Positions 2,085 to 28,458 of a DNA stretch of 32,000 bases are shown piece after piece (the stretch's first letter is position 1; each line of letters begins with the position of its first letter). The position numbers and the translations under genes are program-made. This stretch comes from Planctopirus limnophila DSM 3776. Its GTDB lineage: Bacteria; Planctomycetota; Planctomycetia; Planctomycetales; Planctomycetaceae. Below the pieces are notes generated by a model. That model saw only the letters and a list, made by a program, of their open reading frames with translations, had not been told where the DNA came from and ran no database searches. The stretch lies in contig NC_014148.1 in NCBI RefSeq assembly GCF_000092105.1, positions 2,400,001 through 2,432,000 of the forward strand. The letters are read 5' to 3'.

Positions 2085-3563
2085 TTACCACTCTTCGCTC
2101 TTTTGCACGTCACTCCATTGAGGAAGCAGACCATCGAGGCTGCTGACAATCCGCAGGTGTGAGACTCGAGCCAGATTGATCGATTCACCCGGAATGAGTG
2201 GAGATGTGCCGGGAGTTTCAATACGCACTGTTGGTTCAGCAAATCGCTCGCGATTCGACAACACGACCTTCGCGGTTCGTCCGTCGCTCAGCTTGACATA
2301 ACTCCCTACAGGAAAGAGGGAAATCAGGTGCAATAAGGCCCTGACAGATAAAGAGTCGAAATGGCCGGCTCGGGTCCCTTCCAGCAGATGTTCAATGGCT
2401 GCATAAGGAGATATTCCCGGGCGGTGCGGTCGCGGTGAGATCAACGCCAGATAGGTATCCGCTACAGCCGCAATACGCGAAAGTGGATGAATCTGATTGC
2501 CGCTGCGCTGCCGGGGATAACCTGAGCCATCCATTCGTTCGTGCATCTGGTAAGCCACAAGTTTGGCACCATGTGTCACGGTGGGCTCTTTGCTGAGCAG
2601 ATCGCAGATATAGATCGGATGCTTCATGATTTCGAGCTGGCTGCCGGCATTCAGCCTGCGATCAGCTTTCAGCTTCTGGGCAACTTTCAGCATCCCCGAA
2701 TCATGGATCAGACAACCAAAGCTCAAATCGAGAAGTTCGTCCTTTCGAAAGCCCATTAAAGTGGCCATCGCCGATGCCAGCATCGATGTCTTCAAACCAT
2801 GCTGCATGGGATATCGATCAAGGACTGGCTGTGAACCATTTTCGGCGAAAAGATCAATATCGCGGCTCATCAGAATCAGATTCTGTCGAGCCACGCCAGT
2901 GACGGCGTTCGTGTTGACTTTGCCTTTCGTACCAATATCAAGAAAGACGTCTTTCAACTGCCCGAGTGATCTTTCCACGCCTTGCTGAATTTCTCGAACC
3001 AGTGCCGGAGAAGGGTCAATGTTACTTCTCTGCGAGACATCATGAATGAACGAATCCGGTCTGATATTCCATTTGGGAGTCGGCGGAGTCGCGGGCGTTG
3101 CTGATGTTTCTTGAGCAGGTGCTGTCTTGGCACCAGCCCGATAAGTGCCGCCAATCCGCCCTGGGCCGGAGACATTGTTCAGTTCATTTTTGTGAACATG
3201 CACGAACTTGACGCCGCGACGGGCCATCAATTCGAGCAGATGAGAAGTGATGCGAGTTCCCGCAGCCAGCAATAGGGGAAAGGTCGGCTTATCCGCATCG
3301 TAGAGCGGAGACCGCAAATTGGCCCCGGGCCGAAGACGATCGATCGAAATGATCTGATAGTCGGCCCTGAGACTGGCTGATGAAGGACTTGTCGTTGGAC
3401 CCATGTGAAGGAAACTTGGCTTCAGTGGGAGGAGATTTTGGTGGTTCGATTCCGGTGAAAGACTGCTGACAGAAACTCTCACTAGCAAGGGTAGCTCATA
3501 GATTTCGCCGAACATGAAAAACTTTTGCGGGATCGATGCTGACACAGGTTCTGTGAAGGTCAA
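2085..3563 (-). CDS. HD-GYP domain cyclic-di-GMP phosphodiesterase-like protein with a DUF3391-like N-terminal region
   Basis: The 492-aa ORF carries the HD motif (CLIHDSGM) and the signature HERMDGSGYP. The N-terminal segment (IDRLRPGANL...LLAAGTRITSHLLELMARRGVKFVHV) resembles the DUF3391 module common in HD-GYP proteins. Confidence 0.9.
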   Translation of the reverse strand: MTFTEPVSASIPQKFFMFGEIYELPLLVRVSVSSLSPESNHQNLLPLKPSFLHMGPTTSPSSASLRADYQIISIDRLRPGANLRSPLYDADKPTFPLLLAAGTRITSHLLELMARRGVKFVHVHKNELNNVSGPGRIGGTYRAGAKTAPAQETSATPATPPTPKWNIRPDSFIHDVSQRSNIDPSPALVREIQQGVERSLGQLKDVFLDIGTKGKVNTNAVTGVARQNLILMSRDIDLFAENGSQPVLDRYPMQHGLKTSMLASAMATLMGFRKDELLDLSFGCLIHDSGMLKVAQKLKADRRLNAGSQLEIMKHPIYICDLLSKEPTVTHGAKLVAYQMHERMDGSGYPRQRSGNQIHPLSRIAAVADTYLALISPRPHRPGISPYAAIEHLLEGTRAGHFDSLSVRALLHLISLFPVGSYVKLSDGRTAKVVLSNRERFAEPTVRIETPGTSPLIPGESINLARVSHLRIVSSLDGLLPQWSDVQKSEEW

Positions 3564-3676
3564 AACCGGTTACACTGCAGAGTTTGTGCGTCATGGTCGC
3601 TGGCTGTGCGGCGGAGTTTCAACAGGGATGATTCCGCAAAGAAACAGAGAGCGAAAAGGGCAACCAAGAGATAGCC

Positions 3677-5755
3677 ATGGGTCGGATACAACAGCTCTCC
3701 AACAGTGTAGTGAACAAAATCGCAGCAGGCGAAGTGATCGAGCGCCCTGCCAGCGTGGTGAAAGAACTGATCGAAAACAGCATCGATTCCGGCGCACTTC
3801 GGGTTGAAGTCGATATTGGCGCGGGTGGCAGTGAATATATTCGCGTGACCGATGATGGCGGAGGCATTCACGCGGATGACATTCTCCTCGCTGTGACCAC
3901 ACATGCGACCAGCAAGATCCGCACGGCTGACGACCTGTTTCAGATTTCCACACTCGGTTTTCGTGGCGAGGCCCTGGCGTCGATTGCCGAAGTGAGTCAA
4001 CTGAGAATCCGGTCGCGAATTCCAGACAGCGATGTGGGTTCAGAGCTGGTCGTCAATCTGGGTGAGCGGGGAGAAGTCGTTCCTTGCGGCTGTGCGACGG
4101 GAACATGTATCGAGATTCGACAACTCTTTGCAAATACACCTGTCCGCAGAAAATTTCTCAAGAGCGATGCCACCGAATTCGGACACATCAGTGAACAATT
4201 TACCCGGATTGCACTGGCCCGCTCTCATGTGCACATGGTGCTTCGTCACAACGATAAAATTGTGTACGAACTCCCTGCCACAGACCGACTGATTGACCGT
4301 CTCGAAATGTTCTATGGTTCGGCCATTTCCGAACAGTTGATCTCGATTGATCATCAACTCGGAGAAATGCGACTCTGGGGTTATGTCGGCCATCCGGCTG
4401 TCAATAAAGCCACACGGAAATGGCAGCATCTTTTCTTGAATGGCCGCTGGTTCCAGGATCGATCCATTCAACATGCTCTTTCCGAGGCTTATCGCGGCTT
4501 GATCATGGTGCAGCGTCATCCGATCTGTTTTCTCTTTCTCGAACTCAACCCGGCTGATGTCGATGTGAATGTGCATCCCACCAAGGTGGAAGTACGCTTT
4601 CAAGATCCGCAGTCAATCTATCGCCTCATGCTCTCATCACTACGCAATCGATTTCTAGGCATGGATCTCGACAGCAAGCTCAAGGTTCCTGCTGAAGCCA
4701 GCACAGTCGATCCTCAAGAGCAGAACGAAATCCAGAAAGAGTTCTCCCAATGGGCAAAGACCGAACTTTTCAAAACGGCTGAGATCGCCGGGTCTCCGCT
4801 CATGGTTGGATCGACGATCGGCAGTGCCAACGCAAATAGTCCACTCTCGCTGCTTTCGCCGAACCTGCCGGATTCAGCCACTTCTCCCTGGAGCTCGGAA
4901 ATCGCTCCCGGATTGAATCGCTTCGAGACTGAGAATCTGGAATGGTCGGCCACGACTCACCGGACAGTCAGCAGAGTGAATTCACCATCGCATTTTGATC
5001 ACGTAGCCCATTCCGAATCGACGGATGGCATGGATACGCCAGAAGTCGAAGAGGCGGCATTCGCAGAGCAGCCCCAGAAATCTGATCATGAACTGGACTC
5101 CTCTCAGGCGAGGGAAATCTCTGAACTTCCTCATGCCGCTGGGAGCCAGAACCATCATTTCTCGACACAATTCCTGGAAGGGGTGCGAGCGCTGCAGATT
5201 CATGACTGCTATCTGGTGGTCGAAACTCCCGAAGGGATGACGGTCATCGATCAACATGCCTTGCATGAACGAATTCTTTACGAAGAATTCCGCCGTCGAG
5301 TGCATAGCAAGGCCATGGAATCGCAGCGACTGCTCATCCCGGTACCGATTGCCCTGGGCTTTCGGGGATCCAGCCTGCTCCTCGATTGCCGGGAAGCGTT
5401 AGATCAACTGGGATTCGAGATTTGCGAATTCGGGCAGGGAACCATTCTCCTTTCGGCCTACCCGGCGATGCTCGGAAAACTGAATCAGGAGCAATTGCTT
5501 CGTGATCTGGCGGAACAATTGGAGTCTTCATCACTGGAAAGTGCTCATCGCGATATTCTGGATGAGCTACTGAATATGATGGCTTGTAAGGCGGCTGTAA
5601 AATCGGGGCAGAAGTTGAGCCAGGAGGAAATCGAAGAGCTGTTGCGACAACGACATCTTGTCGCCGATGCTCATCATTGTCCTCATGGCCGGCCTACGGC
5701 ACTCAATCTGTCAAGAAGCGAACTTGATCGGCAATTTGGACGTCTGGGTTCCTGA
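3677..5755 (+). CDS. mutL: DNA mismatch repair protein MutL (endonuclease type)
   Basis: The N-terminal GHKL ATPase motifs are present (VVNKIAAGEVIERPASVVKELIENSIDSGA, DDGGGI, GFRGEAL). The C-terminal endonuclease motifs DQHALHERILYEE (DQHA-x2-E-x4-E), ACK and CPHGRP are also present. A long Ser/Pro-rich linker joins the two parts. Confidence 0.95.
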   Translation: MGRIQQLSNSVVNKIAAGEVIERPASVVKELIENSIDSGALRVEVDIGAGGSEYIRVTDDGGGIHADDILLAVTTHATSKIRTADDLFQISTLGFRGEALASIAEVSQLRIRSRIPDSDVGSELVVNLGERGEVVPCGCATGTCIEIRQLFANTPVRRKFLKSDATEFGHISEQFTRIALARSHVHMVLRHNDKIVYELPATDRLIDRLEMFYGSAISEQLISIDHQLGEMRLWGYVGHPAVNKATRKWQHLFLNGRWFQDRSIQHALSEAYRGLIMVQRHPICFLFLELNPADVDVNVHPTKVEVRFQDPQSIYRLMLSSLRNRFLGMDLDSKLKVPAEASTVDPQEQNEIQKEFSQWAKTELFKTAEIAGSPLMVGSTIGSANANSPLSLLSPNLPDSATSPWSSEIAPGLNRFETENLEWSATTHRTVSRVNSPSHFDHVAHSESTDGMDTPEVEEAAFAEQPQKSDHELDSSQAREISELPHAAGSQNHHFSTQFLEGVRALQIHDCYLVVETPEGMTVIDQHALHERILYEEFRRRVHSKAMESQRLLIPVPIALGFRGSSLLLDCREALDQLGFEICEFGQGTILLSAYPAMLGKLNQEQLLRDLAEQLESSSLESAHRDILDELLNMMACKAAVKSGQKLSQEEIEELLRQRHLVADAHHCPHGRPTALNLSRSELDRQFGRLGS

Positions 5756-5791
5756 TGGCTGTTTGAATGACGATTTTTATCCACGCATCAA

Positions 5792-7360
5792 TTGATAGGG
5801 CATATTGTGGCGTCGCAGATTTGTGTTGGAATAGGCCGCACCCGGCACCAGATGATGATTGCGGAACATCAGGCACTGGCGCAAAAAGGTGCCGAGCTGG
5901 TGGAACTCCGGGTGGATTACCTGTCGCGAACACCCGATATGAAGCGATTACTCGCGGATCGGCCCACTCCCACCATCGTCACTTGTCGTCGCGTGGCAGA
6001 TCGCGGTCGCTTTCGCGGTACAGAAGAAGAGCGGCAGACAATCCTGCGAACCGCCATTCTTTCCGGGGCTGATTATGTCGATATCGAAGCCGATATTGCC
6101 CCGCAGATCCGCAGATATGGCAAGACCAAACGGATTATCAGCCATCACGACTTCGATCAGACTCCTGATGACCTGGAAGAGAAGTATGCACAGATGTGCA
6201 AACTGGATGCGGATCTGGTCAAGATCGTGACGATGGCGAACCGGGCTGAGGATTGTGTCCGCATGCTCAAGCTTGTCGAAGGTGCACAAGTCCCCACAGT
6301 CGGTTTCTGTATGGGGGAGAAGGGGATGCTCACCCGTGTCCTGTGTGGTGCCTTTGGTTCGCCCTTCACTTACGCGACATTCAATAAAGAACGTGAACTG
6401 GCACCTGGTCAGTTTTCATTCGACGAAATGCGGAAAATGTTCCGCTACGAACAGATTACCCGCAAGACGATTCTGCTGGGTGTTCTGGGAGACCCGGTGG
6501 CCCACAGTTTGAGTCCTCTCCTGCACAATACGCTCATGCGAAAGGCTGGTTTCGATGGCGTTTACCTGCCACTGCGAGTTTCCGCCTCAGAACTGAGTGA
6601 AACACTCGACGCCTACGAACAACTGGGTTTTACTGGCTACAGTGCCACAATTCCTCACAAGGAATCTGTGCTTCAGAAATACCCGATGTGTGATGACTTC
6701 GTCCGGGCGATTGGAGCTGCGAATACGGTCTATCGCGATCAGGCGGGGCATTGGGCCTGTTCGAATACCGATTACCAGGCGGCACTCGATGCCATTCTCA
6801 GTGGGCTTAAACCTGGAGAAAGCCTGACTGGCAAACGTGTCTTATTGCTGGGTGCCGGTGGTGCTGCCAAAGCGATTGGCATGGCCATGCAGAAGAGTGA
6901 AGCCATTACCGTGGTGGCAAGCCGCACATTGAAAAGGTCTCAAGCACTGGCTGATCAAATTGGCGGGCGGGCAATCACCTGGGAAAACCGCGGGTCGGAA
7001 TTTGCCGACATTCTGATCAATTGCACGCCCGTGGGTATGCATCCGAACTTGAATGAATCCCCCTTTCCCATTCACTGGCTGCGCGAGGGGATGCTAGTTT
7101 TCGACACGATTTACACACCCGAGCGAACTTTGCTGATCAAAGATGCCCGTGATCGCGGCTGCACGACAGTCACTGGCGTAGAAATGTTTATTCGCCAGGC
7201 GACGGCACAGTTCCGATTGTTTACCGGGCTCAAGCTCTCGCTCGATGATGTCCGTACGATTTTCCGTCGATTGATTTCGCCTGTTCGACATGACGATCTG
7301 CTGGCCGATCCTTCGGCTGCCGATGGAAATGCGGATAACGGACAAGTGAGCGACTCATGA
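5792..7360 (+). CDS. aroDE: Bifunctional 3-dehydroquinate dehydratase (type I) / shikimate 5-dehydrogenase
   Basis: The N-terminal half is AroD-like (ELRVDYL, ISHHDF, DLVKIVTMA with the Schiff-base Lys context). The C-terminal half is AroE-like (VLGDPVAHSLSPLLHN, GAGGAAKA Rossmann motif, NCTPVGM). The predicted start is a non-ATG codon, so the exact start is uncertain. Confidence 0.9.
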   Translation: MIGHIVASQICVGIGRTRHQMMIAEHQALAQKGAELVELRVDYLSRTPDMKRLLADRPTPTIVTCRRVADRGRFRGTEEERQTILRTAILSGADYVDIEADIAPQIRRYGKTKRIISHHDFDQTPDDLEEKYAQMCKLDADLVKIVTMANRAEDCVRMLKLVEGAQVPTVGFCMGEKGMLTRVLCGAFGSPFTYATFNKERELAPGQFSFDEMRKMFRYEQITRKTILLGVLGDPVAHSLSPLLHNTLMRKAGFDGVYLPLRVSASELSETLDAYEQLGFTGYSATIPHKESVLQKYPMCDDFVRAIGAANTVYRDQAGHWACSNTDYQAALDAILSGLKPGESLTGKRVLLLGAGGAAKAIGMAMQKSEAITVVASRTLKRSQALADQIGGRAITWENRGSEFADILINCTPVGMHPNLNESPFPIHWLREGMLVFDTIYTPERTLLIKDARDRGCTTVTGVEMFIRQATAQFRLFTGLKLSLDDVRTIFRRLISPVRHDDLLADPSAADGNADNGQVSDS

Positions 7361-8097: not shown

Positions 8098-9402
8098 ATG
8101 CTCGATCTCCCTGCGTGGTTCATCCTTTCGACGCTCTTTATTCTGGGTTCGATGGTCGGGAGTTTTCTGAATGTCGCTGTCTGGCGGATTCCACGCCACG
8201 ACGACTGGATTCAATCACTCAAAGGGGTCGTTTATCCCCCTTCAGCCTGCCCGGGTTGTCGGACGCCGATTCTTTCGAGAGATAATGTCCCAATTCTGGG
8301 TTGGTTATTACTTCGGGGCCGCTGTCGGGCTTGTGGAATTCGAATTTCGTGGCGTTACCCGGCGATCGAAGCCCTCAATGGCATATTGTGGGTGGTGCTC
8401 TATCTCGCCATCGTGCCTCAAGGCTACTTTCACGAAGCCTCAGCGAGTTGTGTCTGGACTGAACTGCTTCCGGGAGATGCAACGGTCGTCAGCCGTCAAG
8501 AAATCTTCAGTCGTGCGTTATGGCATTACGTTTATTTTCTGGTACTGATTGAAGGGCTGCTCGTTGCCACTTTGATTGATTTTGATCTGCAGATCATTCC
8601 CGATGGAGTGACTGTCCCCATGGCGATTTTTGGTCTCGCCATACCCATTATCACGGGTACAACAGCGCTTTGGCCCGTCTGGTTTCACGATCCGGAACTG
8701 ATCCGCACATTGGGCCTGTTCTTCCCGGAAGGAATGTTGAGCTGGTGGGAGACATGGAGCATCCCGAGCTGGATTTCTGCATGGCCTCGATGGCATGCCA
8801 TCGTATTCAGCCTGACAGGTCTGGTCGTTGGCGCTGGTCTGATCTGGCTGGTCAGAATCCTGGGACATTGGGTTTTCGGTCAAGAGGCCATGGGGTTTGG
8901 CGATGTCATTCTGGGAGGAGTGATCGGCATTTACGTTGGTTGGCAAGCCTCGATAGTCGTTTTCTTTCTGGCACCAGTCGTGGCTCTTCTTTCACTGGCG
9001 GTCACCTTCCCGTGGATCAAAAACCGGGCAATGCCCTATGGACCTTTCCTGAGTATCGCCACACTCATTGTGATACTCGGTTGGCAACCCATCATGACGC
9101 GAGCCGAGAAATTCTTTGCGATGGGGCCCTTACTTTTCATCATTGGCGCCGTGATGCTGGTACTGCTCGTCGCCTCACTCTGGCTGGTGCAGGGCATGAA
9201 GCGTTTATTGGGTATTCGCGATGAATGGCCCATCGAAGACGAATGGACCAGTGCCGACCAGTTGATCTTCTTTGCCAACCGTCAACCGGAAGCCACGATG
9301 AGCCAGCCGGGATCAAATTCAACATGGCATGGTGAGTTAGCCAGCCAGGGACGCTTACACAGCGAAAAATGGCGCGGCCATACACTCCCATGGAAAAACT
9401 GA
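8098..9402 (+). CDS. Prepilin peptidase (peptidase A24 / PilD family), unusually long
   Basis: The N-terminal CxxC...CxxC module is CPGCRTPI...GRCRACG. The two catalytic-Asp contexts are IDFDLQIIPDG and GFGDVILGG. The protein has multiple TM segments. At 434 aa it is longer than the roughly 250-290 aa I recall for typical PilD. Confidence 0.85.
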   Translation: MLDLPAWFILSTLFILGSMVGSFLNVAVWRIPRHDDWIQSLKGVVYPPSACPGCRTPILSRDNVPILGWLLLRGRCRACGIRISWRYPAIEALNGILWVVLYLAIVPQGYFHEASASCVWTELLPGDATVVSRQEIFSRALWHYVYFLVLIEGLLVATLIDFDLQIIPDGVTVPMAIFGLAIPIITGTTALWPVWFHDPELIRTLGLFFPEGMLSWWETWSIPSWISAWPRWHAIVFSLTGLVVGAGLIWLVRILGHWVFGQEAMGFGDVILGGVIGIYVGWQASIVVFFLAPVVALLSLAVTFPWIKNRAMPYGPFLSIATLIVILGWQPIMTRAEKFFAMGPLLFIIGAVMLVLLVASLWLVQGMKRLLGIRDEWPIEDEWTSADQLIFFANRQPEATMSQPGSNSTWHGELASQGRLHSEKWRGHTLPWKN

Positions 9403-23566: not shown

Positions 23567-24496
23567 TCATTCCGATGGAATGTAGGCATTTCCACGATGA
23601 CCAAAGGAAAAGATCTGCGGATGGAAAATCTCCGCGAGAATTTCGGCCGATTCGACCAGTCGAGGCCCAGGTCGATTGAAATACTGGTTGCCATCAACGA
23701 TGTAAACCTGTCCTCCCTGCACAGCCCGCAGCTTTGCCCATTCAGGCTGTTTCGCCAGGCATGGCCATTCCTGCTGAATACGGGGAATGTCAAATCCACA
23801 AGGCATCACCAGCACGATATCAGGATCGGAGGCCAGGAGTTCATTCCAGGTCATCCACGGCGAATGTTGCCCAGCCACTCCAAAAAGATTCTCACCCCCG
23901 GCCAATGTCACCAGTTCGGGAACCCAGTTTCCTGCCGCCATAATGGGTTCCATCCATTCAATACAAGCGACTCGCGGTCTTCGGGTGACTTTACTCGCAG
24001 TTTGCGAGATTTCGTCCAATCGCCGCTGTGAATCTGCAATCAACTGAGCACCCCGCTCGGCCACACCAGCAGCGACGGCCACTCTTTCGATATCTTTCCA
24101 GACATCACTCAGCCAGTTGGGTTCACAGGCGACAATGCGAGGCTGACTTGTCACCACCGCGCACATGGCTGCTTCCACATCTTTGAGACTCACGGCACAG
24201 ACCTCGCACTGAGTCTGCGTGAGAATCAAAGTCGGCTCAAGATGATTCAGAAGTTCCACATCCACGTTGTAAACAGAAGTCGCATCTTTCAGGACATCTT
24301 TGACACGCTGATCAATCTCAAGACTGGAACCATTCACATCCAGTTTGGCCGAAGAACATTTGGGCAAACTCAGCACTTGTGGCGGATAATCGCATTCATG
24401 AGAACGGCCCACGAGTTCTTCAACGAGTCCCAGGCGATCCACAATTTCTGTCGCGCTGGCGATCAGCGACACAATCCGCTCGGGTCTTCTCTGCAT
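23567..24496 (-). CDS. BtuF/TroA-like (class III periplasmic-binding-protein fold) cobalamin/siderophore-type binding protein lacking a signal peptide
   Basis: The protein starts directly with the family's first strand (RIVSLIASATEIVDRLGL..VG.SHECDYP). It contains LEPTLILT, DPDIVLVMPCG and the NRPGPRLVESAEILAEIF C-terminal helix. No hydrophobic leader is available in the ORF. Confidence 0.8.
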   Translation of the reverse strand: MQRRPERIVSLIASATEIVDRLGLVEELVGRSHECDYPPQVLSLPKCSSAKLDVNGSSLEIDQRVKDVLKDATSVYNVDVELLNHLEPTLILTQTQCEVCAVSLKDVEAAMCAVVTSQPRIVACEPNWLSDVWKDIERVAVAAGVAERGAQLIADSQRRLDEISQTASKVTRRPRVACIEWMEPIMAAGNWVPELVTLAGGENLFGVAGQHSPWMTWNELLASDPDIVLVMPCGFDIPRIQQEWPCLAKQPEWAKLRAVQGGQVYIVDGNQYFNRPGPRLVESAEILAEIFHPQIFSFGHRGNAYIPSE

Positions 24497-24530: not shown

Positions 24531-25199
24531 TCAGGCTATGGCGAATTCGCACTGACGGTAAGGCCCTTCGTGGCGAATCCCCTGCTGGAGATACTCAATC
24601 GGCCACCGAAACAGCGGGCCATTCACCACCAGACTATGGTATTCGCCATTCTCACCTGCAGGATCCACTCCTGCTGGTAACGATTCCAGAAAATGATGAT
24701 CAAGCTCGCATCCCAGGGATTCAGCGTTCAAACAAGGTGCCAGCACACTGCACACGATGGATCGATACCCCGCCGCAACCAGTTGCGGCACGACATCTTC
24801 TGGTGGCAACTTCCACAACGGGAACAAAGGAGTCATCCCGTGGCGAGCACAGAGCCCTTCGCGATAGGCTCGAATCTCTTCCACGAAAAGATCACCAAAG
24901 ACGATATGATCAACCCCACGGCTCTTAAGTTTGGAAAAATACTTCGCGAGCCGATTTTCATATTCGATGTTCGAGCATTGATCAGGAAGAGGAATCAGAT
25001 CAACCGGAATACTCATGGATCTGGCCTGTGCTTGAATCATGCTCAAGGGTGTCCCATGAATTGCTAACAACCCACTTTCTTCGCAATACGTCGTGAAAAG
25101 CGCATGAACTTCAAAAGCCAATGGTTGAGAAAATAACCTGTGCAAGGCGAGCATGCAGTCCTTACCGCCACTCCAGGAAACAACTACTTTGATGGGCAT
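24531..25199 (-). CDS. Dph6/MJ0570-like PP-loop ATP pyrophosphatase (adenine nucleotide alpha-hydrolase superfamily)
   Basis: The PP-loop VVSWSGGKDCMLAL lies at the N-terminus, and the family-like blocks HIVFGDLF and NGEYHSLV are present. The ORF extends to a TTG at 25241, but the ATG at 25199 gives the usual short N-terminus. Confidence 0.8.
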   Translation of the reverse strand: MPIKVVVSWSGGKDCMLALHRLFSQPLAFEVHALFTTYCEESGLLAIHGTPLSMIQAQARSMSIPVDLIPLPDQCSNIEYENRLAKYFSKLKSRGVDHIVFGDLFVEEIRAYREGLCARHGMTPLFPLWKLPPEDVVPQLVAAGYRSIVCSVLAPCLNAESLGCELDHHFLESLPAGVDPAGENGEYHSLVVNGPLFRWPIEYLQQGIRHEGPYRQCEFAIA

Positions 25200-25326
25200 T
25201 ACAAGTACCGATCGAGTCAGTGCAGGCATTAAGCAAGTCAATTCAAACTCACAAACTCAACACCGGCAATCGTAGAAAACTTTCCACGCCATCGCGTAAT
25301 ACCCATCTGGTCTTCCGGGTCGAAAC

Positions 25327-25647
25327 TCAGGGCTTTTGAACCAGTGCTGTCTTTGTCTTCGTACAGACTCGCAGAGCAGGGTTTCTTTGCCATTCATCTC
25401 CTGGTGGCATGGGTTGCCATTTCTGGCAACTGGGACACCACAAAGCTGGCAACCACTCCTGTTCTTCTCCCACAGGAAGAACTCGAAACTCTTTCGCTTC
25501 TCCTGTTCCTTGCCGGACAAAAGTTGTCAGCGGTCGTTCGTCATCATGGACTGTCGATGAAGAACAGCCGCAGGTGATGGACGCCAGCATGAAACATAGA
25601 ATCATGCAGCATACCGACAATTGCCTGGAGTATTTGATCATTATCAT
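25327..25647 (-). CDS. Small putative lipoprotein (106 aa)
   Basis: The hydrophobic leader ends in a lipobox-like ASITCGC. The gene lies directly downstream of, and co-oriented with, the DUF1559 gene. It contains a CPSC motif and no domain I recognise. Confidence 0.55.
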   Translation of the reverse strand: MIMIKYSRQLSVCCMILCFMLASITCGCSSSTVHDDERPLTTFVRQGTGEAKEFRVLPVGEEQEWLPALWCPSCQKWQPMPPGDEWQRNPALRVCTKTKTALVQKP

Positions 25648-25773: not shown

Positions 25774-26697
25774 TTAATTACGGTCGTAAAGTTCATTCTG
25801 CAGAAGAGGATCACTCAGATTTCCGTTACTGACATGACCAAGCCTTTTCTCTTCGATCAATCCGGCCTGGGCAGGGGTCATGTAGTTGGAGCCAGGGACT
25901 TCAATACGGAAGTTTCTAGGTCTGGTTTCCACGTGCCCGTCGAGAAAGGCCACATTGGCTGTATCCGAGTGCCGGAAATGAACTGAGGGATAGTTAGCAC
26001 TGGGAGGTTCCAGACGCCAGTTTTCCAGCAATTTCAGAGTGAAATCCACTTGTGCGCTGTCTGAGAAAAGAATCGTATTCGTCATCTGGGCAACATCGCG
26101 GAAGCGATACGTGACGGGAGTCGAAGAGACTGCAGGTGGCCAGCCGGCATAGCTTAATCCGGGCGAAACCAGCGCGTTGAGCGCATAGCCTGAGGCCATC
26201 TGTCCAAAGCGAATACCGTCGACCTGACCTGGCCCGAAATCAGGGCATTGATAGGCAGCACGATTAGTTTCCATATAGGGGGCCAGCGGCCCTTTCTGAA
26301 AATCGAGCTGGCGGGAAGGATCGGTCTCATCACGATTGACCTCACCAAACCAATAGATATTCCTGCCACGATTCGGAGGAGTATATCCAGCCATTACATA
26401 CTGCTGCTGTCGCACATCATCAATCACATAAGGGACGATATGACCGTTGTGGACATCGGCATAATTATGAACGGCAAGTGCCAGTTGCTTGAGATTGTTT
26501 CGGCACTGGGTTGTCCGGGCGGCTGCTCGGGCCTGTTGCACGGCCGGAAGTAAAAGCCCGATCAAGACCGCGATGATGGCAATGACCACCAGAAGTTCGA
26601 TGAGGGTAAAACCTCGTGTTGAACGGCGCAGAGGGGGCCTGTTGCCGCTGCGTGATGCGGCCGGGAGAGAGAACATCATTGTCAAAACCTTAACCAC
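25774..26697 (-). CDS. Prepilin-type N-terminal cleavage/methylation protein of the DUF1559 / H-X9-DG family (pseudopilin-like)
   Basis: The class III signal is [34 protein letters not shown]. The C-terminal H-X9-DG motif is [13 protein letters not shown]. The likely real start is the ATG at 26679, with AAGG 9 nt upstream, rather than the GTG at 26697. Confidence 0.9.
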
Positions 26698-26854
26698 GAA
26701 GGTTCAATTGCCTGCGCATAGAGTCACATCAAGGCAGACTGAATCTGCTATCAATCTTAGTTTGAGGCCCAACCTCATGACGGTTGGTATCCCTTGCTCA
26801 GATCAATAAGACGACTCAGACCGCCAGATCTGTGATCACTCACCTGCTGGCAAC

Positions 26855-27015
26855 AAAATGACATCTGGGCAGGTCTTCTGACTCCCGGATCATTCGACCA
26901 ATCACACCTTCCCACGCTTTACAGCGCAGTGGCTCAACGTGAATGTCGTCCCCGGATACAGCGGCGGGACCGTGACGGATTCGCACCGTCTTCCCTATTC
27001 TCCAGTGAAGCCACA
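26855..27015 (-). ncRNA. Cobalamin (B12) riboswitch
   Basis: The minus strand reads ..GAAUAGGGAAGACGGUGCGAAUCCGUCACGGUCCCGCCGCUGUAUCCGGGG..(26995-26958).. then GAGCCACUGCGCUGUAAAGCGUGGGAAGG, then GAUCCGGGAGUCAGAAGACCUGCCC (B12 box at 26883-26867). All conserved blocks of the cobalamin riboswitch as I recall them are present in the right order. The element lies about 180 nt upstream of the DUF1559 gene start. The outer boundaries are approximate. Confidence 0.85.
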
Positions 27016-27253
27016 AGCCTCACCAGCACCCATGTCGGGAGGGAGAGTACCACGCCGCAAATCATTTTCAAGCCCCAGTGAGATCGATTCGCTCGAACCC
27101 ATTTTCCAATACGCTCGTAACCTGCATCCATGCCAAGAGATAGGTTTAAAGAATCGTGGCGGCCTCTTCGGCAAGGTTCCGCAACTGTAAAGGGTTGTCA
27201 CTCAAGGAACGATTCATGCATCACGATCGCATCACAAGATCCCGGGGAAAGCA

Positions 27254-28222
27254 TCAAGCGGGCCGATGTGTCGCTGCTGCACGCGAAAGTCTGTCGTTGA
27301 TGGCCATGCCCAGCCCATGTTCCGGGAATCGTAATGCCGCAATTCGAGGGACACCTGATCGATCCAGTTGATGCAAAGCCTGGAAGAGCAGGCTGGCGGC
27401 TTCCTGAAGGTTCTTTCGAGGAGAAAGCTCCATGACGGGCCCCAGATGCCCCTGGGGTCGACCACAAAAGGTTAACACACCATCTCCGGGTTTGAGTTCT
27501 TCAAATCGATCAATCATCACCAGTGGTGTTGCAGGTGCGTAATGTTTCATGAGCATTCCGGGAGCTGCCTGACTCGCTGCTGTTTCTACAGATTGAGCAG
27601 GCAATCTCTTCAGCGGCCCGATCATGTGCTCGACCTGTTCCACAGGCAAGCCCCCAGGTCTGAGCAGGTAAACACCATCCGGCATGAAACCAATAATGGT
27701 CGATTCCACACCCACTTCGCATGCCCCGCCATCCAGGACATAAGGAATACGTCCCTCAAGTTGTTCCACCACATGCTGGGCACTGGTGGGGCTTAATCGC
27801 CCGAACAAATTCGCACTCGGGGCAGCCAGAGGCACGCCAACTTTCTCAATGATTTTTCGCATCAGCGGATGCTTCGGACATCGAACGGCGACCGTCCCCA
27901 GGCCAGCCGTCGCCAGATCCGGAACATGCGGCTTTTTGGGAAGCACGAGCGTTAGAGGGCCGGGCCAGAAGGTATCGACGAGCCGCCGGGCATCATGCGG
28001 TACTTCGCTGGCCAGTTGAGAGACTTGACCAGGCCTTGCGATGTGCAAAATCAAAGGGTCAAACGTGGGTCGATCCTTGGCAGAGAAAATCTTGGCCAGC
28101 ACCTCTGGATTCAAACCCAGCCCGGCAAGCCCGTAAACCGTCTCCGTCGGGAGTGCTACCAACTCACCAGCCTTCAAGGCGCGAATGGCTTCTTCAGCAT
28201 CTGATAATACGACGGTCTGCAT
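27254..28222 (-). CDS. tsaC: L-threonylcarbamoyladenylate synthase (Sua5/YrdC family, long form with Sua5 C-terminal domain)
   Basis: The motif KAGELVALPTETVYGLAG is followed by KDRP, HPL and SAN blocks and then a Sua5-type C-terminal domain. The ORF is open to a GTG at 28303. The ATG at 28222 (MQTVVLSDAEEAIRAL) gives the canonical N-terminus. Confidence 0.9.
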   Translation of the reverse strand: MQTVVLSDAEEAIRALKAGELVALPTETVYGLAGLGLNPEVLAKIFSAKDRPTFDPLILHIARPGQVSQLASEVPHDARRLVDTFWPGPLTLVLPKKPHVPDLATAGLGTVAVRCPKHPLMRKIIEKVGVPLAAPSANLFGRLSPTSAQHVVEQLEGRIPYVLDGGACEVGVESTIIGFMPDGVYLLRPGGLPVEQVEHMIGPLKRLPAQSVETAASQAAPGMLMKHYAPATPLVMIDRFEELKPGDGVLTFCGRPQGHLGPVMELSPRKNLQEAASLLFQALHQLDRSGVPRIAALRFPEHGLGMAINDRLSRAAATHRPA

Positions 28223-28458
28223 CCACAGGGCTCCAGCGAAAATGAATTCTTCGCTGAATTGCAGCAGCCCAGCCTCATTCCCGCAAGTCTGGAAAGGTAT
28301 CACCCTTGATCAACAAAAACTTGCTGCTAGGCCAAAAACCGGACAGCCAAATCGTGTTTTGCAGAGAATGATCTGCAACTAAAGAGGCATGCGGGAGACC
28401 ATGTCCCCTGGTCATCTACAGCATCACTCACAGAGTGGAAATCATGCCCCACCAGAGT

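Follow-up and report, generated by a model that had tools for sequence, protein, structure and literature searches.

A cobalamin riboswitch in the leader of a divergent DUF1559 pseudopilin-like gene of Planctopirus limnophila, and a probable role of its operon in corrinoid acquisition

We analyze a 32-kilobase (kb) stretch of the Planctopirus limnophila DSM 3776 genome (hereafter, the window, with positions numbered from 1 over the whole stretch), in which a gene for a prepilin-type, pseudopilin-like protein of the DUF1559 family has a cobalamin (vitamin B12) riboswitch in its 5' leader, in cis and on the same strand. From the sequence, the riboswitch is predicted to head a four-gene operon on the minus strand that encodes the pseudopilin, a small cysteine-containing partner, a Dph6-like protein and a BtuF-like protein. 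The preliminary description of this DNA had recognized the first of these genes and missed the continuation of the operon through to the BtuF-like gene. The features of the locus, with lengths in nucleotides (nt) or amino acids (aa), are the following:

26851..27048, minus strand: cobalamin riboswitch aptamer, RF00174, matched by cmscan over the full model
26868..26884, minus strand: B12 box GAGUCAGAAGACCUGCC, read from the sequence and aligned with the conserved Rfam model segment AGCCAGGAGACCUGCC
26680..26850, minus strand: leader from the aptamer to the start codon, 171 nt, with a partly resolved expression platform, no substantial open reading frame (ORF) and no convincing terminator
26671..26705, minus strand: predicted hairpin at the Shine-Dalgarno (SD) sequence and start codon, -8.8 kcal/mol, holding AAGG (26691-26688) and ATG (26679-26677)
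25774..26679, minus strand: divergent DUF1559 / H-X9-DG prepilin-type (pseudopilin-like) protein, 301 aa; PF07963, PF07596, TIGR02532 and TIGR04294
25327..25647, minus strand: small secreted or membrane-anchored Cys-containing partner, 106 aa, no family match, neighbour of the pseudopilin in orthologues
24531..25241, minus strand: Dph6-like N-type ATP pyrophosphatase, PF01902 at 122 bits, true start probably internal to the ORF
23567..24496, minus strand: putative corrinoid-binding, BtuF-like protein (Peripla_BP_2, 78.7 bits) with no signal peptide; relative of 5ysc

The aptamer is an authentic and ordinary member of RF00174. When the whole window was searched with cmscan at Rfam gathering thresholds, this family gave the sole match at or above threshold. 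The match lies on the minus strand at 27048..26851, scores 112.7 bits where 31.5 is required (E = 9.8e-28), and runs from model position 1 to 189 of 189 without truncation. The conserved blocks appear in the correct order, as AGGGAA, GGUGCGAAUCC, CACGGUCCCGCCGCUGUA, GCCACUG...GGGAAGG and the B12 box; as matched for family membership, the core blocks read GGGAA, GGUGCGAAUCC, CCCGCCGCUGUA, GCCACUG...GGGAAGG and GAGUCAGAAGACCUGCC. The aptamer also carries the peripheral extension typical of the adenosylcobalamin (AdoCbl) class. The preliminary description had called a B12 riboswitch here from these blocks, all of which are present, and had proposed a cmscan or cmsearch run as the check; the score lies far above the gathering threshold. 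Its span of 27015-26855 does contain the blocks and omits, on the 5' side, about 33 nt belonging to P1/P2.

The gene behind this leader encodes a prepilin-type H-X9-DG protein, as had been read from the sequence at the outset, and both profile matches and motifs bear this out. Translation from the ATG at 26679 gives the 301-aa product, and an alternative GTG at 26697 would give 307 aa. The prepilin motif is found by PF07963 (N_methyl, 33.9 bits, cutoff 21.2) and TIGR02532 (29.4 bits, cutoff 16.3); the leader reads RG|FTLIELLVV, with Phe at +1, Glu at +5 and the Gly codon at 26613-26611. TIGR04294 finds the H-X9-DG motif (21.4 bits, cutoff 19) as H237-X9-D247-G248 at 25971-25936, and these three residues are invariant across 54 orthologues. 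PF07596 (DUF1559) scores 49 bits against a cutoff of 23.3. Because this match covers only profile positions 1-31 of 268, compared with positions 1-267 (159 bits) in a canonical DUF1559 paralogue, we classify the window pseudopilin as a family member with a strongly divergent C-terminal domain, a call made at the level of sequence profiles. Similarity to GspG, GspH and ComGC is confined to residues 28-80, and all three equivalog models score below cutoff (GspG 34 vs 88.85 bits, GspH 33.5 vs 80, ComGC 31.6 vs 75). In an AlphaFold2 model (predicted local distance difference test, pLDDT, 81), residues 26-76 form an N-terminal helix, and a beta-rich domain comes after it. The subfamily to which the protein belongs is large, with at least 120 clusters at 55% identity or more. 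According to a 2023 study (PMC10632474), DUF1559 as a whole is the largest paralogue group of P. limnophila, with 68 copies, two of them essential, and no known function. A prepilin (type IV leader) peptidase gene (A24_N_bact + Peptidase_A24) lies on the plus strand of the window at 8098-9402, about 17 kb from the operon, and the DUF1559 leader would be expected to be processed by its product. The operon itself holds no pilus assembly genes (ATPase, platform or secretin).

Evidence that the riboswitch belongs with this gene comes from orthologous loci. These were collected by a search that was blind to the RNA, using only protein patterns from the full-length pseudopilin and its subfamily-specific C-terminal domain, and their gene content was determined by tblastn with reference proteins together with ORF maps. 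After removal of near-duplicates, those that bear the riboswitch represent about 28 distinct lineages, with 41-68% protein identity to the window pseudopilin. We call a locus informative for the riboswitch when it includes enough DNA upstream; in the 8 loci without a match, the DNA ahead of the start codon is shorter than about 280 nt and speaks neither for nor against. RF00174 lies upstream on the same strand in all 36 informative loci (3 from genomes, 33 from metagenomes). The loci that bear it are L001, L002 and L004, 31 metagenome loci and L056, with scores of 87-126 bits, and L051, in which the 3' half of the aptamer is present and the 5' part is cut off by the contig edge. No match was found near other DUF1559 paralogues (0 of 11 loci). 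The pairing of the aptamer with this DUF1559 subfamily is thus kept across planctomycete lineages, which answers in the affirmative the question, raised in the preliminary description, of whether orthologous DUF1559 loci retain the riboswitch.

The order of elements is also shared. It is commonly riboswitch, DUF1559 subfamily gene, partner, (Dph6-like), (DUF6580 membrane protein), (BtuF-like), and many orthologous operons continue with DUF6580, a BtuF-like gene or both. The gene after the partner is on the opposite strand in six loci (L031, L033, L037, L041, L044, L054), which leaves the two-gene cassette there as the sole target of the riboswitch. Some DUF1559 paralogues that have no riboswitch are likewise followed by a small lipoprotein gene (L007:2831-3334, L010:7020-7460), and a cassette of pseudopilin plus lipoprotein may be a general design in the family. 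Beside another paralogue, in a metagenome-assembled genome (MAG) of Planctomycetaceae, lies a match to the Acido-Lenti-1 small RNA (L005:4323-4367, minus strand; 38.3 bits against a gathering threshold of 37).

Between aptamer and gene, the leader of the window is compatible with control at the ribosome-binding site (RBS). The ATG begins 172 nt after the aptamer with no substantial ORF between them, close to the roughly 180 nt first estimated, and orthologous leaders are 112-394 nt long. The SD sequence AAGG at 26691-26688, 8 nt ahead of the ATG, is the one that had been placed at about 26688. Intrinsic terminators had been thought absent, and terminator-like sites indeed occur at chance frequency (7 found, 6.4 expected); none is convincing, and one weak site falls within the leader at 26825-26810. 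The predicted SD/AUG hairpin places the two G residues of the SD in its loop and pairs the AUG, whose probability of being unpaired is at most 0.1; folding in three sequence contexts gave the same result. Orthologous leaders have a conserved hairpin directly after the aptamer and a conserved SD hairpin. In most orthologues the latter has the form GACAACG[GA][GA]G..UUGUC, followed by AUG within 0-3 nt; it is a nearly invariant 5-bp hairpin with the SD in its loop, found once per locus in 18 loci and before 0 of 13 paralogue genes, and is specific to riboswitch-linked DUF1559 genes. Loci listed with this motif just before the start codon are L018, L020, L024-L027, L032, L033, L040, L043, L046, L047, L049, L050, L055 and L056. 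The window hairpin differs from it in sequence and is similar in shape. Minimum-free-energy folds of the whole leader are no better than those of shuffled sequence (z = -1.66).

In the E. coli btuB leader, an aptamer is followed by a proximal hairpin and a distant RBS hairpin, and control is exerted mainly by blocking ribosome binding. By analogy, control here is most likely at translation initiation, and a transcriptional or Rho-dependent contribution is possible. We looked in the leaders of the window and the orthologues for base pairing through which the aptamer could act on the RBS hairpin and found none, so translational control is the favored interpretation rather than a result.

Downstream of the pseudopilin gene comes that for the partner, which has no match in Pfam or NCBIfam; the NCBI gene model for P. 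limnophila is shorter, at 87 aa (25327-25590). Of 39 orthologous loci informative on this point, 34 have a partner gene directly 3' of that for the pseudopilin. A YC..C...CP motif marks the conserved C-terminal domain of the protein, which spans about 75 residues, and the N-terminus has either a lipobox (in many orthologues) or an anchor. Because it is so small and fast-evolving, single-sequence searches were weak: a word-indexed search matched only the P. limnophila protein itself, and an exhaustive phmmer search gave 18 weak matches. Searches by tblastn within the loci worked.

The third product, the Dph6-like protein, has PH1257 and other N-type ATP pyrophosphatase structures as its structural relatives. 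Dph6 itself amidates a carboxylate through adenylation, and by analogy the protein could be an undescribed corrinoid-processing enzyme, acting for example in the re-amidation of side chains. Members of the same family occur in cobalamin-riboswitch operons of planctomycetes (L023, L024, L025, L038) and of other bacteria (L059:3228-4004, L061:4316-5026, L064:4167-4964). A literature search for a Dph6-like protein or diphthamide synthase in connection with a cobalamin riboswitch found nothing relevant.

Among solved structures, the product of the last gene is closest to 5ysc, a vitamin B12-binding protein (1.1e-12), and E. coli BtuF entries match as well; the BtuF equivalog model gives 27.2 bits, below its cutoff of 234. 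A signal peptide is missing from the window protein, whose sequence opens directly with the first strand of the mature fold; a stop four codons upstream of the ATG leaves no in-frame extension. A signal-peptide-free subfamily with the N-terminus RIVSLIAS.TEI...LVGRSHECD.P can be recognized in the window (23567-24496, minus strand), L004:8130-9050, L059:4613-5536 and L060:4612-5616; the proteins of L059 and L060, from other bacteria, share both the N-terminus and the lack of a signal peptide. Because of that lack, the subfamily is presumably cytoplasmic and not a canonical periplasmic BtuF. The window operon has no FecCD or ABC_tran genes, that is, no BtuC or BtuD. On the other side of the riboswitch, directly upstream, is a gene for a Sua5/TsaC threonylcarbamoyl-AMP synthase (27254-28303, minus strand); this synteny is kept in distant orthologous loci (L046:2142-3077, L047:1-408, L056:2384-3319; 45-48% identity), with no obvious functional link.

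To place the cassette in context, we compared it with loci from other bacteria, found via homologues of DUF6580 and scanned for riboswitches in their surroundings. L057 is a Balneolales MAG; L059-L061 are contigs of other bacteria with no taxon assignment. Their gene orders are as follows:

L057: riboswitch, TonB-dependent receptor, DUF5074, DUF6580
L059: riboswitch, Dph6-like, DUF6580, BtuF-like, then a second riboswitch and a TonB-dependent receptor
L060: riboswitch, TonB-dependent receptor, DUF6580, BtuF-like
L061: riboswitch, TonB-dependent receptor, Dph6-like, DUF6580, adjoining FecCD/ABC genes
L063: DUF6580 beside class II ribonucleotide reductase, DUF4430 and PduO-type adenosyltransferase, with no riboswitch match
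L064: riboswitch, secreted 550-aa protein of unknown kind, Dph6-like, DUF6580

Outside Planctomycetes, a TonB-dependent receptor is therefore the usual occupant of the first slot in such operons. A tblastn search with four riboswitch-linked receptors found none in the window or in the 56 planctomycete loci (443 kb), and none of the 7 operon and flanking products scanned in the window has a Plug or TonB-dependent-receptor domain. Conversely, no prepilin motif was found in the non-planctomycete loci. Because the receptors are absent from the planctomycete loci and the prepilin motif from the others, the pseudopilin and its partner occupy the slot in the gene order that BtuB-type receptors hold elsewhere. 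By the same sequence comparison, Dph6-like, DUF6580 and signal-peptide-free BtuF-like proteins form a B12-linked module that recurs in several lineages behind a variable front slot. In L064, the slot before the Dph6-like and DUF6580 genes is filled by the secreted 550-aa protein (2564-4216), which has no Pfam match and may be a third kind of envelope component. L059 is unusual in having two cobalamin riboswitches (2936-3139 and 5635-5803) 2.5 kb apart, one heading the Dph6-like/DUF6580/BtuF-like operon and the next a TonB-dependent receptor/Peripla_BP_2 operon.

DUF6580, which NCBI names a putative transport protein, is found in L003:1266-2027, L004:7227-8033, many other loci and L057-L064, and is tied repeatedly to cobalamin riboswitches or B12 enzymes across different lineages of bacteria. 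Its AlphaFold2 model is all-helical (pLDDT 91) and resembles neither the S-components of energy-coupling factor (ECF) transporters nor BtuM, with a best E of 0.23 against the PDB; sequence and profile searches of the PDB found nothing. On its genomic associations, we regard DUF6580 as a candidate new inner-membrane corrinoid carrier.

Taken together, the gene content and its conservation suggest that this is probably a B12-repressed operon for corrinoid acquisition, in which the pseudopilin and its partner would serve the envelope stage in place of BtuB. In such a system, abundant corrinoid would bind the aptamer, and the liganded form would stabilize the SD/AUG hairpin and switch the operon off; when corrinoid is scarce, the operon would be expressed. 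A prepilin peptidase would process the pseudopilin, which could be either a retractile fiber or a membrane-anchored periplasmic binder. With its partner it would form the envelope stage, either capturing corrinoid at the outer membrane or outside it, or conveying it through the periplasm, the job done elsewhere by a BtuB-type receptor. The corrinoid would next be handed to an inner-membrane carrier, for which DUF6580, present in most orthologous operons and absent from the window, would be suited. The BtuF-like protein would receive it in the cytoplasm, where the Dph6-like enzyme may modify it. The preliminary description had already proposed a role for the pseudopilin in corrinoid acquisition; the BtuF-like gene in the operon, the pairing in 36 of 36 loci compared with 0 of 11 for paralogues, and the position in the receptor slot all speak strongly in its favor, on the evidence of sequence comparison. 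Corrinoid binding by the pseudopilin, the formation of a competence-like fiber and purely translational control are steps that we infer.

Several points weigh against this interpretation. The functional support is guilt by association and comparative genomics throughout, and genes in the loci were assigned as longest ORFs and by tblastn, not taken from curated annotation. The absence of receptors holds for the window and the 56 loci, not for whole planctomycete genomes. The partner gene is absent from 5 of the 39 informative loci, and with no DUF6580 in the window's own operon the inner-membrane step there has no candidate. A Foldseek search of the pseudopilin model against the PDB gave nothing with E below 1, which backs neither a pilin nor a B12-binding fold. 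As for the switch, RNAduplex gave a different anti-SD site in each orthologue and hence no consistent partner, and the L5 loop (GGUCCCGCC) is essentially invariant and thus offers no covariation in support of an L5-L13 kissing loop.

The best-surviving alternative keeps the same B12-repressed operon and assigns the DUF1559 protein a different form: a helix-anchored periplasmic binder or chaperone for corrinoid that makes no fiber, works with the partner and feeds the inner-membrane carrier, with corrinoid crossing the outer membrane by another route. We consider this possible and on balance rather unlikely. The role of periplasmic binder is vacant, since the BtuF-like protein lacks a signal peptide both here and in other phyla; the Pfam identifier of DUF1559 is SBP_bac_10; and the scores below every equivalog cutoff for true pilins and pseudopilins, like the lack of a pilin match in Foldseek, fit a protein of this sort. 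However, in L060 and L061 the receptor-DUF6580 pair likewise comes with no periplasmic binder, which makes the outer-membrane receptor in particular the component that the cassette replaces. Moreover, a class III signal peptide with Glu at +5 is the signature of type II secretion and type IV pilus substrates, and the predicted C-terminal domain is beta-rich and does not have a periplasmic-binding-protein fold.

A riboswitch, strictly, indicates only that expression is B12-repressed, and it could be that B12 starvation induces a pilus or adhesin for attachment to, or foraging on, B12 producers or particles, with no handling of corrinoid at all. The six loci in which the regulon unit consists of the cassette and holds no transporter would suit this idea. 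So would the pili-like fibers of P. limnophila, which bind dextran (PMC5394234) and also make fiber-based uptake plausible without proving it. We nevertheless think an adhesin quite improbable, because the cassette shares its operon with DUF6580 and BtuF-like genes in many lineages, and in equivalent operons it alternates with a TonB-dependent receptor, which transport explains better. That the pseudopilin gene is a mere passenger, and the downstream BtuF-like and transporter genes the true targets, would accord with the position of the window BtuF-like gene on the same strand behind short intergenic gaps but is very hard to credit, given that in about 28 independent lineages the riboswitch is without exception followed directly by the DUF1559 gene, that nothing but the cassette follows on that strand in the six loci, and that the leader hairpin motif is specific to these genes and overlaps their start codon. 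We also considered and rejected the logic of a B12-independent isozyme, as for metE: no enzyme is replaced, and the operon holds homologues of B12-binding and transport proteins.

If the operon does acquire corrinoids with a pseudopilin at the envelope stage, the implications extend in several directions. A riboswitch names its signal, and is thus among the most direct computational clues to physiological context; here it ties one defined DUF1559 subfamily to corrinoid supply and offers a first testable function for the family, turning the question of DUF1559 function into a concrete experiment in a genetically tractable organism. It points to a TonB-free route of B12 uptake, which bears on who scavenges B12 in aquatic and soil communities, and there is a real chance of a new kind of envelope transport. 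Three further candidates for B12 salvage that are conserved across phyla also emerge: DUF6580, the Dph6-like ATP pyrophosphatase and the signal-peptide-free BtuF-like protein. More speculatively, and with considerable doubt, we suggest that the DUF1559 expansion might represent interchangeable, substrate-specific pseudopilin adaptors, often with a small lipoprotein, that load a common pilus-like or crateriform-structure machine for nutrients. Planctomycetes would in this way have their own equivalent of the repertoires of TonB-dependent receptors in Proteobacteria and Bacteroidota; the B12-controlled member would then be the first whose cargo can be named, and uptake of a vitamin by a pseudopilus would be a new transport mechanism.

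The riboswitch itself is ordinary; the cassette that it regulates is not, and we found no prior report of it. Searches of the full-text literature found no paper tying DUF1559, pilins or DUF6580 to cobalamin and nothing relevant on cobalamin riboswitches in Planctomycetes, and a 2025 review of Planctomycetota mentions none of B12, TonB, pilin or riboswitch. Among the closest familiar systems is btuB with BtuB-BtuFCD of E. coli, which resembles the window operon in having an RF00174 aptamer in the long leader of the first envelope component, a distal RBS hairpin and a BtuF-family protein. Unlike it, the window operon has no TonB-dependent receptor, BtuC or BtuD, and starts with genes for a prepilin-type protein and its partner; the BtuF-like protein, unlike E. 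coli BtuF, lacks a signal peptide and falls far short of the BtuF equivalog cutoff. Closer in content are the operons of L057 and L059-L061, which combine a TonB-dependent receptor with DUF6580, Dph6-like and BtuF-like genes and appear to be undescribed themselves. They share with the planctomycete operons the riboswitch family, the BtuF-like subfamily, the Dph6-like protein and DUF6580, and differ in the first slot, where they have the receptor (plus DUF5074 in L057) and the planctomycetes have DUF1559 and the partner.

For the partner, a possible parallel is BtuG, a surface lipoprotein of Bacteroides that, according to Wexler et al. in 2018, reportedly works with BtuB. In both cases an accessory surface or envelope lipoprotein is encoded beside an envelope transporter at a B12-riboswitch locus. 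The window partner, by contrast, is a protein of about 100 aa with a Cys motif and no detectable similarity to a known family, and its neighbor is a pseudopilin rather than a TonB-dependent receptor. For the pseudopilin, the comparison is with the ComGC pseudopilus, DNA uptake by type IV pili, and GspG-K. Their similarity to the window protein is limited to the N-terminal 50-60 residues, their equivalog cutoffs are missed and the operon has no assembly genes; the supposed cargo is a small cofactor instead of DNA, and the fiber is putative. What they have in common is the leader with Gly-1, Phe+1 and Glu+5, a hydrophobic N-terminal helix, a C-terminal globular domain and, in the window, a prepilin peptidase, together with the underlying concept of a pilin-like device that carries a substrate across the outer membrane.

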